Shown piece by piece: positions 7,013 to 61,179 of a stretch of DNA of 64,000 nt. The position numbers and the translations under genes were made by a program. Source of the stretch: Octopus vulgaris (taxonomy: Eukaryota); assembly GCA_951406725.2 (NCBI GenBank), contig OX597835.1, positions 20,460,001 through 20,524,000 on the forward strand, given 5' to 3'. Below the pieces are notes generated by a model. That model was not told the origin of the DNA and did no database searches. It saw only the letters and a program-made list of their open reading frames with translations. The number at the start of each line of letters is the position of its first letter. Positions within the stretch are counted from its first letter, which is position 1.

Positions 7013-7191
7013 AATATTTAAGCTTACGTCGATTCCTCCGTCGTGTTGTTTTGCATTTATAATAAATACATTTTCTTTCACCATTTTATTCCTTTAGAAT
7101 AATACCAATGTTGTCTTCGAAACATGTCGGAAGTAAAAGAATTTAAACACACCTGCGTTTAACTCTTTTTGTTTATTTATATATATATATA

Positions 7192-7363
7192 GGCGCAGGA
7201 GTGGCTATGTGGTAATAGCTTGCTAACCAACCACATGGTTCCAGGTTCAGTTCCACAGCGTGGCATCTTGGGCAAGTGTCTTCTGTTATAGCCCCGGGCC
7301 GACCAATGCCTTGTGAGTGGATTTGGTAGACGGAAAGTGAAAGAAGCCTGTCGTATATATGTG

Positions 7364-7394
<31 letters not shown>

Positions 7395-7611
7395 TTGTGT
7401 GTCTGTGTTTATACCCCTAGCATTGCTTGACAACCGATGCTGGTGTGCTTACGTCCCCGTCACTTAGCGGTTCGGCAAAAAGAGCCCGATAGAATAAGTA
7501 CTGGGCTTACAAAGAATAAGTCCCGGGGTTGATTTGCTCGACTAAAGGCGGTGCTCCAGCATGGCCGCAGTCAAATGACTGAAACAAGTAAAAAAGTAAA
7601 GAGTAAAGAGT
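7192..7611 (+). mobile_element. tRNA-derived SINE family A, full length
   Basis: A-box tggctatgtgg, B-box-like ggttcagttcc, internal (TA)/(TG) tract, tail cagcatggccgcagtcaaatgactgaaacaag(taaagag)n; more than 10 copies in the window. Confidence 0.9.
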
Positions 7612-7779
7612 ATATATATTATACAAAATATTTCGCATCAACCCGTAGTTGCTACCTTTGCAAACAGGGAGTTATGTCCTTATTAATTGTGTGATATTTT
7701 GCTGCCCTCATAACTATTTGTCTATTTTCCTTGTTAATTGTAAACAAGGGAAAATACACACATCCATATATATATGGGA

Positions 7780-8159
7780 TGGAAGCACTCTGTCGGTTAC
7801 GACGACGAGTGTTCCGGTTGATCCGATCAACGGAACAGCCTGCTCGTGAAATTAACGTGTAAGTGGCTGAGCACTCCACAGATACGTGTACCATTAACGT
7901 AGTTCTCGGGGATATTCAACGTGACACAGAGAGTGACAAGGCCGGCCCTTTGAAATAAAGGTACAACAGAAACAGGAAGTAAGAGTGAGAGAAAGTTGTG
8001 GTGAAAGAGTACAGCAGGGATCACCACCATCCCCTGCCGGAGCCTCGTGGAGCTTTAGATGTTTTCGCTCAATAAACACTCACAACGCCCGGTCTGGGAA
8101 TCGAAACCGCGATCCTACGACCGCGAGTCCGCTGCCCTAACCACTGGGCCATTGCGCCA
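7780..8159 (-). mobile_element. tRNA-derived SINE family B, full length
   Basis: Head ggcgcaatggcccagtggttagggcagcggactcgcggtcg...tttcgattcc; near-identical to the 16790, 22029 and 58567 copies. Confidence 0.9.
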
Positions 8160-16789: not shown

Positions 16790-17173
16790 TGGAAGCACTC
16801 CGTCGGTTACGACGACGAGGGTTCCGGTTGATCCGAATCAACGGAACAGCCTGCTCGTGAAATTAATGTGTAAGTGGCTGAGCACTCCACAGATACGTGT
16901 ACCCTTAACGTAGTTCTCGGGGATATTCAGCACGACACAGAGAGTGACAAGGCCGGCCCTTTGAAATAAAGGTACAACAGAAACAGGAAGTAAGAGTGAG
17001 AGAAAGTTGTGGTGAAAGAGTACAGCAGGGATCACCACCATCCCTGCCGGAGCCTCGTGGAGCTTTAGGTGTTTTTCGCTCAATAAACACTCACAACGTT
17101 CGGTCTGGGAATCGAAACCGCGATCCTACGACCGCAATTCCGCTGCCCTAACCACTGGGCCATTGCGCCTCCA
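16790..17173 (-). mobile_element. SINE family B with TSD
   Basis: TSD taggtagcagagc at 16759-16771 and 17175-17187. Confidence 0.92.
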
Positions 17174-18147
17174 CTAGGTAGCAGAGCAGCCTATTATCAA
17201 AGCATTCTATCCATGACCATCTCGCTGCACCAATGGAGTAGAGTATCTGAATTATTCTTTCATTCAGTTTGTTTGAGGTGTACAAGATGTGATATTTTAA
17301 GCTAGCATAGCTTCTTATTTCTAGAAGTTCGGTTGAACGAGTAGTTGTGCCATTTGCCAACATTACATCGCGTCGCAGCTTTCTCTTGTACATGGCCTAG
17401 TGGTATGCACTCAGCATACGAAACGAATCGGTAAAACCCATAGTATTTAGAAAACATCGCTACTTTTACTACACTGCACAGCCATACATAGGTATATCTA
17501 CGTATGTGAACGGGTAACCAACATTCGCATATACCTTGTAAAGTATTCTCATTTTCAACATAATTAAACTTTTAAAAACTGAACGATTTTTGAAAGACTT
17601 ATAATGCCTCAGTCACAGTCCAATAGAACGAATATACTATACAAATATTTGCTGTACAGATCCCAAAGTGGGTTGGTACAAACCAGCTTAAAATATAAGC
17701 GCCAACATTCTTACAACTGTTCCTGTATAAAACTTCAAACTAATAACGCATCCCTTGAGACAATTACAGTTACTAGCATTACGTTTATAAAAGAATGAGA
17801 ATATGTCGAAAGAACAATGATAAGACAGCTTTTCCATATAGGTCCTAATATTGCATGAAATCTTGGTTAACGTACTATGGCTCTCTTTTCTATCTGTGAA
17901 ATTAACATATTACAAAATGGAATTGATCTGCAGCTGTTGAATGTAGCTTTTTCAGTTTAACATGTCTCCCGACAATATTGGTTTTGCACCTAATCAAAAG
18001 CAATAAGTACATTAATGATTTAGATTTAAATAACAATGCCAATAGCATCTATGTGTGTGTGTGTGTTGGTATTTTGAGTACATGTTCAAGTAAATCTCTC
18101 TCTTCTTCACTCTGCCTCTCTCTGTATATGTGTGCGTACAAACACAA

Positions 18148-21633: not shown

Positions 21634-22028
21634 TTCTTCACTAAGGCAAATATATATTCGCTTTATAGAATTTATTTGAAAGTGAAACTGCTGCTTGGAG
21701 CGGGAGACAACGAGCCAAATTACTGCTAACATGTACATTTGATTCATCGGCATTACATCACAAAGCAACATGTAAATGTTATAAGTGCAAATAGCTATTG
21801 AATTTTACATTTCCTGGTAATAGTCATGTACTGATCTGTAGACATCATGGCACTATACCAATTGTGGAATTAGTATGTCAACAGTAACAGCCGTTCATCG
21901 TGTAACTTACAACCAACGATCTTATGTAAAGCCAATGTGTATCTGCACAGCATTTAGTAGTTAAGTACTACTACTACAGTTCTATAGAAATACTATTATA
22001 TAGTGACATATCCTTTTATATAGTAATG

Positions 22029-22412
22029 TGGAGGTGCAATGGCCCAGTGGTTAGGGCAGCGGACTCGCGGTCATAGGATCGCGGTTTCGATTCCCAGACC
22101 GGGCGTTGTGAGTGTTTATTGAGCGAAAACACCTAAAGCTCCACGAGGCTCCGGCAGGGGATGATGGTGATCCCAGCTGTACTCTTTCACCACAACTTTC
22201 TCTCACTCTTACTTCCTGTTTCTGTTGTACCTGTATTTCAAAGGGCCGGCCTTGTCACTCTCTATGTCACGCTGAATATCCCCGAGAACTACGTTAAGGG
22301 TACACGTGTCTGTGGAGTGCTCAGCCACTTACACGTTAATTTCACGAGCAGGCTTTTCCGTTGATTCGGATCAACCGGAACCTTCGTCGTCGTAACCGAC
22401 GGAGTGCTTCCA
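22029..22412 (+). mobile_element. SINE family B with TSD
   Basis: A-box tggcccagtgg, B-box gtttcgattcc; TSD tatatagtaat at 22017-22027 and 22415-22425. Confidence 0.92.
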
Positions 22413-28457: not shown

Positions 28458-28994
28458 GTGTATATGTGTGTGTATGTGTATATATATATATATTTTTTTT
28501 TTTCGATTAGATTTATTATTATTACTAATATTGTTGTTATACATACATACAAGCGTATGTACTGATAATAATGGGTGGATGTAAACACATGAACAAAATT
28601 AGAACAAAAGCAACAACAACAAAAACAAAATACAAACTACAAAATACAAAATACAAATTACAAGAATGTATATTAACAGAAGATACAAATAGTACAGGCA
28701 TCCCCCTCACACACACACTAAATAAACATAGACGCACATAGAGATATAAGCATGCGCAAATGAAGACGTAGAATATAAATACAAAATGGCTGTCGGTTAG
28801 TAAGGAGAGACACAAATAAGTGAGAAGAAAACAAAGGACCACTGATGTGGTCACAGGAGTGTGACGAAAGAACTTTGGCCGAAATAAGATTAAGATTAAT
28901 GTAAAAAATAAATATCACTGAAGCAAAATAACACCAAATATATAGTGCGTGTGTTTTTATTGGCTAAACTGGCAATATGACCATTCCGAAATAT

Positions 28995-29757: not shown

Positions 29758-30745
29758 ATGTACATATATCTCTGTGTGTATGTGTATGTGGAGAGAGAGA
29801 CAGATAGAGGGAGAGAGAAAGAAAGAAATGCAAATACAGGTATATCATCTAGCACAGAACATATATCTCCGGCTCTAGTAGCTTCGTCGTAATTACCAAA
29901 TGACAACAGAAAGCATTCAATATGAAAAGAGGATATAATAGGAATAATTCCCCATAATTGAAAAACCGAAAGAAACGATCAGATAAGCGAACTGTAGTGA
30001 TACATATTTCCGCCTGAGTAAGCGTCATCAGCTCGACTTTCATCCGCACTTATCTACAGCAGCCAAGGTACTTAAGAGAGTAGAAGATATTTATGGCCAA
30101 AGTAATTGGTGTAATTCTAATACAAACTAACCAAAAGACATAATGTAGAGTGCCCAATAGAATCTATTTGAAGTGCAAACATTAGACATCACATTAATTA
30201 ATCAGGTAAATCGGTCGGAAGAACCAATCCTTCTGTATTCTTTATCTACGAGCAGAATTTGTAGTTTCAATTATTTCAATGTACTTCATACGACAGCATG
30301 AAATTTTAGATTAATTTGAAGCTCTTACTGTATTAATGCAGATAATCATTTCTCTGCAGATACACACGCGCGTGCGTGTATATACATTTATGTATAATAC
30401 CCGTACGCCTGTGTGTCTATATTACATATATTCATGAATGCAGATTTTCATGCAAACGTGTACGTAGTGAGATATGCAGTATGAATGCCGTCATCACTCT
30501 CTAGGAAACGTGTTTTTGCATTGTCAAGCTTTATCTGCTTCGAAGATGGTTAACGCAGGTAATGTAATTTAGTTATCAGTATGCTCAATCTTGTTAAATA
30601 TATTCTGCATTATTTAGTATTATTTTCATCGGCTCTGCTTAGTGTGTATTTAAAAAAATCCCTTTTCATTATTATAATCAAGTCTACAATCAGAGTCAGT
30701 GAACCGTTCATTCTGTAGGAAAACTAATATATATATATATATAAT

Positions 30746-30861
30746 TTTTTTTCGTAATGAGATAAAAAAAACCAAGGCTGTGTAGATTTTAGAACATTTA
30801 CATCTATCTATAAATGTTCTAAAATCTACACAGCCTTGATTTTTATCCCATTACGAAAAAA
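30746..30861. repeat. Fold-back palindrome (about 52-bp arms, 10-nt loop) next to (TA)n
   Basis: caaggctgtgtagattttagaacattta / taaatgttctaaaatctacacagccttg. Confidence 0.9.
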
Positions 30862-31031
30862 CATTTTTTATATATACACGCTGACATATGACCAAAGTTG
30901 AACCCCTTATTCGCATTATCACCGAACCTCGAACTTAACTATGGTCTATTTATAGCACTTATTCAGCATTACCTAACACCTATGTGTCTCAATAAGACCA
31001 TTACTTCTCATAAATTCTCTTTCTCTCATAT

Positions 31032-31340
31032 AGCAATTGCAGCGTGAAAGCTGTTTATAAGCCATTTAAGAAACACACAAAATCCTATAGATTCACTTCA
31101 ACATTTAAATTTAATTTGTCAAAATATTTTCGTCGCTTTGAGATACACCACGGGACTTTGTCAGTGAACAGGTCGCGGTCCCAAAGCGACGGAAATATTT
31201 TGACAAATTATATTTAAATGTTGAAGTGAATCTAACGGATTTCTTAAATGGCTTATAAGCATCTTCCACACAGCAATTGCTTTCGTTCCAGCACACGATC
31301 TCAGATCAGGTCACTTGCTATGCAAGTACAACTCTGTAAA
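31032..31340 (+). mobile_element. Fold-back PLE-like element with G3:C8 variant hammerhead
   Basis: Inverted arms about 31032-31143 and 31179-31281. Confidence 0.7.
31157..31207 (+). ncRNA. Hammerhead ribozyme variant (core GUGAACA; A13G in this copy)
   Basis: UUUGUCA-GUGAACA-g-GUCGC ggucccaaa GCGAC-GGAA-AUAU-UU-UGACAAA; the inverted arm retains GAAA. Confidence 0.65.
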
Positions 31341-31590
31341 TACACACACACACCAGGCACGTTGCCGTCAGTAGTTACTCAGGGTAGTCATTCGACGCCC
31401 TCTATGTAGTAAAACACACAAAAAGTAGGCGAAACACAGGTGAACAACTGAGCTGAAGGCAGGTTTACTACTGCCTTTATAGCACATTAAGGAAACGGTG
31501 TTGCAGGAGTGTACACAGCACGTGTACTATGCGTAGCTTAAATACTGAGATTAAAAACCAGGGGCCAATTACGCCTACCTAAACTATAAC

Positions 31591-31629
<39 letters not shown>

Positions 31630-39899: not shown

Positions 39900-39942
39900 C
39901 CACCTGAAGATTGTCGATCAAGACAAGAAACAATTGTAGTGG
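39900..39942 (+). ncRNA. Minimal type-I hammerhead ribozyme (inverted copy)
   Basis: Identical to the 39372-39414 motif; palindromic stem III ACAAUUGU. Confidence 0.85.
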
Positions 39943-57961: not shown

Positions 57962-58140
57962 CAACATCGAAAAATAACTTAGGAATGAGAACCCAGGTTC
58001 GAAATTTCCCCAAGACACCTGATGAAGGCTGGAGGGTATATCAGCCGAAACGTTGTGTTAACAACAAACAAGATGAGGACAAATATCCGTCAAATGTAAA
58101 TAATGTACGTAATTCCTCATCTCTTAAATATAGAACGTTA
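57712..58140 (+). mobile_element. tRNA-headed, hammerhead-bearing SINE/retrozyme-like element with inverted head copy
   Basis: A-box tggcgcagtgg 57807-57817, B-box gttcgattc 57852-57860, (AAC/AAT)n, HHR 58014-58059; inverted head 57728-57805; (ATT)n flanks. Confidence 0.8.
58014..58059 (+). ncRNA. Minimal type-I hammerhead ribozyme
   Basis: GACAC-CUGAUGA-A-GGCUG gaggguauau CAGCC-GAAA-CG-UU-GUGUU. Confidence 0.78.
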
Positions 58141-58566: not shown

Positions 58567-58889
58567 TGGAAGCACTCCGTCGGTTACGACGATGAGGGTT
58601 CCGGTTGATCCGAATCAACGGAACAGCCTGCTCGTGAAATTAACGTGTAAGTGGCTGAGCACTCCACAGACACGTGCACCCTTAACGTAATTCTCGGGGA
58701 TATTCAGCGTGGCACAGAGAGTGACAAGGCCGGCCCTCTGAAATACAGGTACAACAGAAACAGGAAGTAAGAGTGAGAGAAAGTTGTGGTGAAAGAGTAC
58801 AGCAGGGATCACCACCACCCCCTGCCGGAGCCTCGTGGAGCTTTTTAGGTGTTTTCGCTCAATAAACACACACAACGCCCGGTCTGGGA
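58567..58889 (-). mobile_element. SINE family B, 5'-truncated, with TSD
   Basis: TSD gcagaactatag at 58555-58566 and 58890-58901. Confidence 0.92.
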
Positions 58890-60527: not shown

Positions 60528-61179
60528 CAAAATGGGATAAGAACGCAAAATACACAAAGACGCAAAAAAAAGGACGGGTCATTCGAAGCCTCTAATCTTC
60601 AGTCAGGAACCGGATCATCCTAGCAAATTTCGACTGATTAATCCTGATATCGCTCCGATCCGGCCAGCCCCAAGGAAAAACTAAGCTGCGAGCATTAGAT
60701 TTCTTGGAAAAAGGATCGAATGTATACGAAACAAGGACAGAAACACGGACGATGCCACACGAAAATAAATACAAAAAACAAAAATAAAAATAAAAACAAG
60801 AATGGTAATAACAGGACAAAAACAGCAGGTGTCTTACGACTTTCGACAATTTAACTTATCTTAGCCGTATTTTGAAATAAATGCCTTTGCGGCAGACGAA
60901 GAAAAAAACGGTGTTGTCACAGCAGCGGTCAACGGCGGAAAGGCTAGTTGACCAGCAGGTCACGTGAGAGTAGAGAAGAAGATATATATATATGTATATG
61001 TATTTCACGCTCAATGCAATGTTTCTCGTCCGATCACCGAACCTAAGAAACTCGAAATTGGGAAGTACTTAAATGGGTGACCACTTCGGAAACTTAGCAG
61101 CTGCAAGCTTCTCGCCTTACAGGCGCGGTCATTGCCGTGTACTAAGATATTTGCTTCTCAACTACATTGCTCAGATTCC

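Follow-up and report, generated by a model that had tools for sequence, protein, structure and literature searches.

The window, that is, the whole 64-kb stretch of Octopus vulgaris DNA analysed here, contains at positions 31157-31207 a minimal hammerhead motif in which the core pair between positions 3 and 8 is G:C instead of the usual C:G. Judging from the copies of its family across the genome, it is near certain at the family level that this swap is the family state and not decay. It is likely that the intact motif of the family acts as a slow self-cutter, which is predicted to need a second copy of the motif and perhaps the protein of its element; we give this reading a probability of roughly two in three. 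By its anatomy and its place, the motif belongs with the minimal hammerheads of Penelope-like elements (PLEs), failing the literal CUGANGA string only, and its cutting is a prediction. A natural U3:A8 pair and an engineered G3:C8 pair have already been published; the apparent novelty is a natural G3:C8 pair that is fixed.

The motif and its copy in the window

The first-pass annotation had picked out the parts of a hammerhead at this site, and all of them were confirmed by rereading the letters and by the predicted fold. The parts, the surrounding element and a related copy in the window are as follows.

31157-31207, + strand: minimal type I hammerhead motif with G3:C8 for C3:G8 (51 bases; letters and predicted fold)
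31157-31163, + strand: stem I, 5' strand, 7 bp with 31201-31207
31164-31170, + strand: core positions 3-9, GTGAACA (G3 is 31164, C8 is 31169)
31171, + strand: extra G between A9 and G10.1
31172-31176 / 31186-31190, + strand: stem II, 5 bp, closed by G10.1-C11.1
inside 31172-31190, + strand: 9-nt loop II, in which the subfamilies differ
31191-31194, + strand: positions 12-15.1, GGAA, with G at 31192 (position A13); the family has GAAA
31194-31199, + strand: palindrome AATATT, stem III, with predicted pairing between two hammerheads
31200, + strand: N17, which is U (T in the DNA; triplet UUU); predicted cut at 31200/31201, from hammerhead numbering
31201-31207, + strand: stem I, 3' strand
31034-31143, - strand: inverted, 5'-truncated second copy of the element end; starts in loop II and keeps GAAA
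31141-31339, + strand: short pseudo-LTR-end copy, spanning 5'-end hotspot to second 3' end (Penelope-like element, older subfamily of family A)
31248-31339, + strand: remnant of the first codons of the RT/endonuclease ORF, which continues only in longer copies (L142, L143)
28842-28880, + strand: window copy of the sister family B, with T at position 9

Folding prediction for the piece in isolation gives stems I and II, and the parts follow one another in the order stem I, core, stem II, GAAA, stem III, NUH and stem I. A strict descriptor (stem I of at least 7 bp, stem II of at least 5 bp, positions 3 and 8 free) gave 1 match in 60 simulated 64-kb windows; in the real window, 31157-31207 was its sole match. 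The literal string CUGANGA, with C3 and G8, is absent, G3 and C8 being present in 95-99 of 100 family matches listed. That CUGANGA searches would miss the motif, as had been supposed earlier, follows from the descriptor strings that PMC8557442 gives. Rfam misses it too: of all 8 matches that it gave at E values up to 10 for 30900-31600, none was to a hammerhead model, and neither was any of the 150 of 236 window matches listed. Neither the extra G nor the palindromic stem III is special to this site, both being usual in PLE hammerheads. A non-LTR retrozyme has tandem hammerhead units, whereas the insertion in the window is solitary and carries an inverted arm.

Among the invariant letters tested, the window copy departs from the family core only by the change of A13 to G at 31192. 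According to folding prediction, the inverted arm brings stems I and II of the window copy to probability 0 in read-through RNA. Because of A13G and this predicted sequestration, the window copy is very likely inactive, a relic. The inverted arm stops at the first of two family 3' ends. Its earlier description was right in that GAAA is kept, but the extent assigned to it, 31107-31143, was too short, as it really spans 31034-31143; since it begins inside loop II and lacks the core, it cannot itself vouch for G3 and C8. The element copy at 31141-31339 has about 87% identity to another copy and carries a 9-nt deletion. A separate 145-bp self-inverted repeat is located just upstream of the element, at 30732-30876.

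G3:C8 as the state of the family

The O. vulgaris genome used here comprises 2.8 Gb and is rich in TA repeats. A pattern placed downstream of the motif has 8,225 exact matches in it, that is, the family amounts to at least 8,225 genomic matches. Patterns for three loop-II subfamilies, with N at positions 3 and 8, gave 1,347, 2,007 and 249 exact matches, and the reversed-pattern controls gave 0, the real patterns having left positions 3 and 7-9 open. Among the first 100 matches listed, G3 and C8 were present in 98 and 96 copies of the subfamily with 1,347 matches, in 99 and 99 of that with 2,007 matches (A13 in 100), and in 99 and 99 of that with 249 matches. The second of these patterns, that with 2,007 matches, also left positions 12-14 open and revealed GAA there in 97 of the 100 matches listed. 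In an alignment of 65 copies, G3 was found in 65, C8 in 63, A13 in 64 and U17 in 65; U4, G5, A6, A9, G12, A13, A14 and the A15.1-U16.1 pair were each kept in 63-65 of the 65.

Since G3, C8 and A13 are near-fixed across the copies, the swap can be read as the family state and the G at 31192 as decay. The genome-wide match counts and the 65 aligned copies thereby confirm the proposal of the first-pass annotation that the ancestor was intact, with G3, C8 and GAAA fixed. The copies counted are not independent: in one sample, 12 of 30 loci represent one insertion carried by a larger repeat. A larger palindromic repeat, itself multiplied, was seen to have one family A insertion in both arms (L033, L041-L043, L064, L065).

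Four public runs with four organism labels show no variant at or above 3% at core positions 3-9. What varies in these runs is CpG sites and loop II, and a common change in stem I keeps a U.G wobble. When the subfamilies of family A were compared, 0 of 42 structured positions had changed versus 10 of 73 unstructured ones (p 0.013), a test that is partly circular in that the groups are defined by loop II; the loop-free figures are 0 of 42 versus 5 of 64 (p 0.15).

A broken pair, G3/G8, was found in three copies with different flanks on contig C16, in one match on contig C3, and in L147 and L265. The three copies on contig C16 (L393, L398 and L409) are independent insertions with a common broken core on one chromosome, which suggests local spread from one source. 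Such independent G3/G8 insertions imply that a source with a broken pair still jumped. Twenty further divergent ORF matches contained motifs of the family A type only, with no intermediate to C3:G8. At G000:C2:206158695-206186232, 13 motif matches follow one another in tandem with a spacing of mostly about 2.18 kb; tandem motif copies could supply a dimer partner.

Sister families and covariation of positions 3 and 8

Relatives of the element were found with the N-terminus of its ORF, the N-terminal proteins being 35-50% identical. The motif of family B (3,325 matches) occupies the homologous place before the ORF; of the 100 matches listed, 98 have C3 and all 100 have G8. Position 9, which normally does not vary, is C in 96 of 100 matches listed, and strict conservation of the core therefore does not hold in this clade. 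Intact ORFs of 1,312 aa occur in family B (L160, L211-L220), and its older relatives have A9; an older relative with a fully canonical CUGAUGA was found. In family C (2,996 matches), A8 is present in 98 of the 100 matches listed, and 19 of 20 loci have U3. Stem I of this family (L191-L210, L181) is 3 bp long and its palindromic stem III 4 nt; no long ORF appeared among its N-terminal matches.

Seven hand-picked natural copies align gap-free in the core, their 3:8 pair being CG in three, GC in three and UA in one. In this alignment, behind which there are few independent events and for which shuffle counts are not probabilities, 42 of 42 cells of the 3:8 pair and stem II pair, and 3 of 5 stem II pairs change on both sides. 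U4 G5 A6, G12 and A14 A15.1 are invariant across these aligned copies, and the extra nucleotide after position 9, G10.1-C11.1 and a palindromic stem III are present in the aligned families. As far as the aligned sequences indicate, positions 3 and 8 covary over three Watson-Crick states, G:C, C:G and U:A; the independent states number only these three, and a random change of both letters would yield a Watson-Crick pair 1 time in 3 on each occasion. The C3:G8 and U3:A8 pairs that the sister families have at the homologous site thus support the earlier view of G3:C8 as a natural covariant.

In an unrooted tree of 10 N-terminal pieces, family A stands on a long branch apart from B and C. Hammerheads use C3:G8 near-universally, and it is for this reason, not from the unrooted tree, that C3:G8 is taken to be ancestral. 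Canonical-core minimal hammerheads of three other repeat families were also seen in the window, at 58019 (+), at 39904 (+) / 39410 (-) and at 694 (+). That at 694 is a truncated one, whose start lies within the core; the family of the one at 58019 has 3,415 matches.

The host element

The host is a Penelope-like element, apparently a young one. Copies of family A differ in where their 5' end lies, carry inverted 5' pieces, stop at either of two 3' ends and are flanked by TA repeats; the pseudo-LTRs (pLTRs), the inverted 5'-truncated copy, the tail and the microsatellite target are those of an EN+ Penelope-like element. In 27 of 30 loci, counting that of the query itself, the pLTR end lies behind a GIY-YIG domain and on its strand. 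All of the 12 long-ORF elements examined have the motif, at about 1 kb past the end of the ORF, and the 19 motifs found in them are all identical through the core. These long open frames and identical motifs indicate that the element is young.

A 994-aa frame has a C-terminal GIY-YIG domain at 884-974 (E 1.6e-5), and Pfam RVT_1 gave no match to it at E 0.01. The RT-type YVDD is present in the ORF sequence, a cysteine linker was seen in it by eye, and the Atlas neighbours of the ORF at 0.96-0.98 are RT/GIY-YIG clusters. In tandem copies, 56 nt separate the predicted cut from the start of the ORF, which places the motif in the 5' UTR and means that G3 and C8 are not set by codons; a coding constraint on the two letters was ruled out, as the real ORF starts downstream of the motif. 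A MITE or DNA hairpin was ruled out by the breakpoints, which differ among copies.

The first candidate host, a Neptune-like GIY-YIG ORF upstream of L030/L061, turned out to be a nested insertion, with the motif at 1 of 30 loci of its family. A separate young Neptune-like PLE family (L069-L098) has ORFs of 776-847 aa and very long microsatellite 3' regions; a descriptor search found no hammerhead within 1.5 kb downstream of these ORFs.

Copy ends and RNA data

Nearly all copies come from uncut RNA, since their ends are rarely at the cut. Among 98 copy 5' ends, which were picked by the pattern downstream of the cut, with both inversion arms counted and 7 of them belonging to one carried insertion, 1 falls at the cut site and is explained by microhomology, and 42 lie 55-61 nt upstream of it. 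In a canonical-core control family from the window, 0 of 30 copies start at the cut. The canonical control being equally blank, the copy-end test does not single out the swap.

These 42 copies all have their start no more than 7 nt from an acceptor-like AG, with a branch-point-like word before it (31141-31145; L143:1168-1310). The first letters past this AG are predicted to pair with the first 3' end, which would close the hammerhead in one RNA domain. The 5'-end hotspot may mark where transcription starts, where an intron in the pLTR, as sought in EN+ PLEs, is spliced, or where the RT stops. Fifteen runs of guessed RNA type contain part of the stretch. In the contigs of four guessed-RNA runs no spliced joint was seen, and contigs show no molecule ends.

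Predicted fold and proposed mechanism

For stems I and II within the young pLTR, the predicted probability of formation is 0.68-1.0. The folding prediction prefers a G3.U17 wobble that extends stem I, and it gives -25 to -27 kcal/mol for the double-hammerhead form vs. about -31 kcal/mol for the best dimer fold, i.e., the former lies 4-5 kcal/mol above the latter. Owing to the wobble and to the lower stability of the double hammerhead, a slow rate is expected. Lunse et al. in 2017 reportedly described small PLE-associated hammerhead variants that have a short stem III and cleave as dimers; the octopus motif resembles these variants in its short stem III and its predicted dimer use.

We propose that two motifs, supplied by two pLTRs of a tandem transcript or by two RNAs, would pair via their AAUAUU palindromes to form stem III. 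G3 would pair with C8, fixing the ribose of position 8 as in the standard core, and G12 would act as the base; in hammerheads the chemistry is done by the 2'-OH at position 8 and G12. A cut after U17 would trim tandem or read-through transcripts. The cutting is likely weak and dispensable for each jump, as copying begins past the cut site, about 85 or 150 nt further downstream, and nearly all copies derive from uncut RNA. U17 is likely important, since a C in its place would trap the core by pairing with G3.

Several of these steps have counterparts in earlier work. The change G8C alone costs about 10^5-fold, and C3G partly restores the loss. The 3:8 pair is described as forming in the active (catalytic) conformation only (PMC3884650), and the same paper carries, as an unpublished remark ('data not shown'), that G3-C8 is hampered by C17. 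In the PAc PLE hammerhead, an engineered C3G/G8C partly rescues protein-assisted cutting; PAc cutting is reported there to be dispensable for insertion in vitro, with no RNA-seq ends at the site (PMC11167929). Minimal PLE hammerheads are described as cutting weakly and as dimers (PMC4209133). The statement of the first-pass annotation that compensatory 3/8 swaps retain activity holds with a restriction, as the published swaps keep partial activity only.

Alternative explanations

The fold might be kept without meaningful cutting, as a structural handle for protein binding or RNP assembly or as a translation or splicing signal, selection keeping the 3:8 pair for shape. We regard this as improbable, yet substantial enough to be weighed with care. 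The copy ends show no footprint of cutting, but neither do those of the canonical family. All three sister lineages have core changes that weaken the hammerhead (G3:C8, U3:A8 and C9, with U17 in two), as would be expected of such a handle; G12 and other letters of the catalytic pocket are nevertheless kept. The PAc results on insertion and RNA-seq ends (PMC11167929) fit this reading as well, and Cervera and de la Peña, in the text of PMC4209133, allow 'functions other than self-cleavage'. However, a pair that exists only in the catalytic conformation, as stated in PMC3884650, points by its very retention to an active fold.

It seems quite unlikely that the core drifted freely, G3 and C8 having hitch-hiked in one master lineage with their pairing a coincidence and the high identity of copies a mark of recent amplification only. 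Such drift would agree with the jumping of copies that have a broken pair, with the change of A9 to C in family B, with the non-significant loop-free test of selection (p 0.15) and with the position of family A on one long branch with no intermediate. Two lineages, however, each changed both letters and both ended with a Watson-Crick pair, and none fixed a single change; the other core letters and the pairing of stem II have held across proteins that are 35-50% identical. It is very improbable, and largely refuted, that the resemblance to a hammerhead arose by chance from a DNA inverted repeat (MITE/hairpin) or from coding sequence: the locus is a near-perfect 110-bp inverted repeat and one frame is open across the motif in the older subfamily, but the inversion breakpoints vary by copy and inversions are typical of PLE insertions, the young subfamily has this frame shifted and the real ORF begins only beyond the motif, and the chance rate is about 1 in 60 windows while the same motif occurs in the same place in sister families.

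Relation to known systems

The motif, which we prefer to read as a slow self-cutter, is like the minimal type I hammerheads of PLEs described in PMC4209133 in its pLTR place, in the extra nucleotide at 9/10.1, G10.1-C11.1 and the palindromic 15.2-16.2, and also in that most copies are solo and truncated and in its predicted use as a dimer. Its stem I has 7 bp vs. 4-5 bp in the Schistosoma motifs of that paper. The PAc Poseidon hammerhead (PMC11167929) has the same swap, but there it is man-made, whereas here it is natural and fixed in thousands of copies. The ORF of PAc starts inside the ribozyme, whereas the octopus motif lies wholly in the 5' UTR; unprocessed RNA is reported as the main insertion template of PAc, which matches the copy ends found here (PMC11167929). 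As regards the element itself, the RT, the cysteine linker and the C-terminal GIY-YIG are shared with EN+ PLEs that have a Zn-finger-like linker (Neptune/Nematis type; PMC8557442), and the partial tandems, inverted 5'-truncated copies, tail at one end and microsatellite targets with the EN+ PLEs of the same paper. The non-canonical hammerhead core is unlike those elements, and the likeness is one of features, not of a tree.

Natural covariation of positions 3 and 8 has been reported as U3-A8, by Perreault et al. 2011 (PMC3088659) and, in Schistosoma Cercyon, by Cervera and de la Peña 2014 (PMC4209133). The section on natural core variants in Perreault et al. 2011 (PMC3088659) contains no natural G3-C8. 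None was found in the literature searched, text of PMC4209133 included; the Lunse 2017 alignments or the figures of PMC4209133 could hold one.

In the parts of these papers that deal with it, the 3:8 pair has so far rested on a crystal structure and engineered mutants, with natural support up to U3:A8. A natural G3:C8 pair, fixed in a still-multiplying element beside sisters with C3:G8 and U3:A8, gives proof from evolution that the pair occurs in three states. What would be a hammerhead class of thousands of copies is overlooked by Rfam and by motif searches. These families also offer a ready natural set of variants for the question of what PLE hammerheads do, as their core varies, and even breaks, while the elements jump.

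It is a tentative idea, and one that we hold to be rather doubtful, that G3:C8 is a working natural core and that the sister lineages independently moved to slower cores (G3:C8, U3:A8, C9, U17), selected for late or protein-dependent cutting. If this were true, the slower cores would let the RNA survive long enough for copying, PLE hammerheads would be tuned timers, and CUGANGA searches would be blind to many more ribozymes with a swapped core.

Other repeats in the window

A weak 5S rRNA-like match is present at 60996-61109 (+), with 32.4 bits, below the Rfam gathering score. Short interspersed repeats with 80-96% identity are abundant in the window, e.g., at 7780-8158, 16790-17174, 22028-22412 and 58567-58889, and also at 7186-7620 and its kin.
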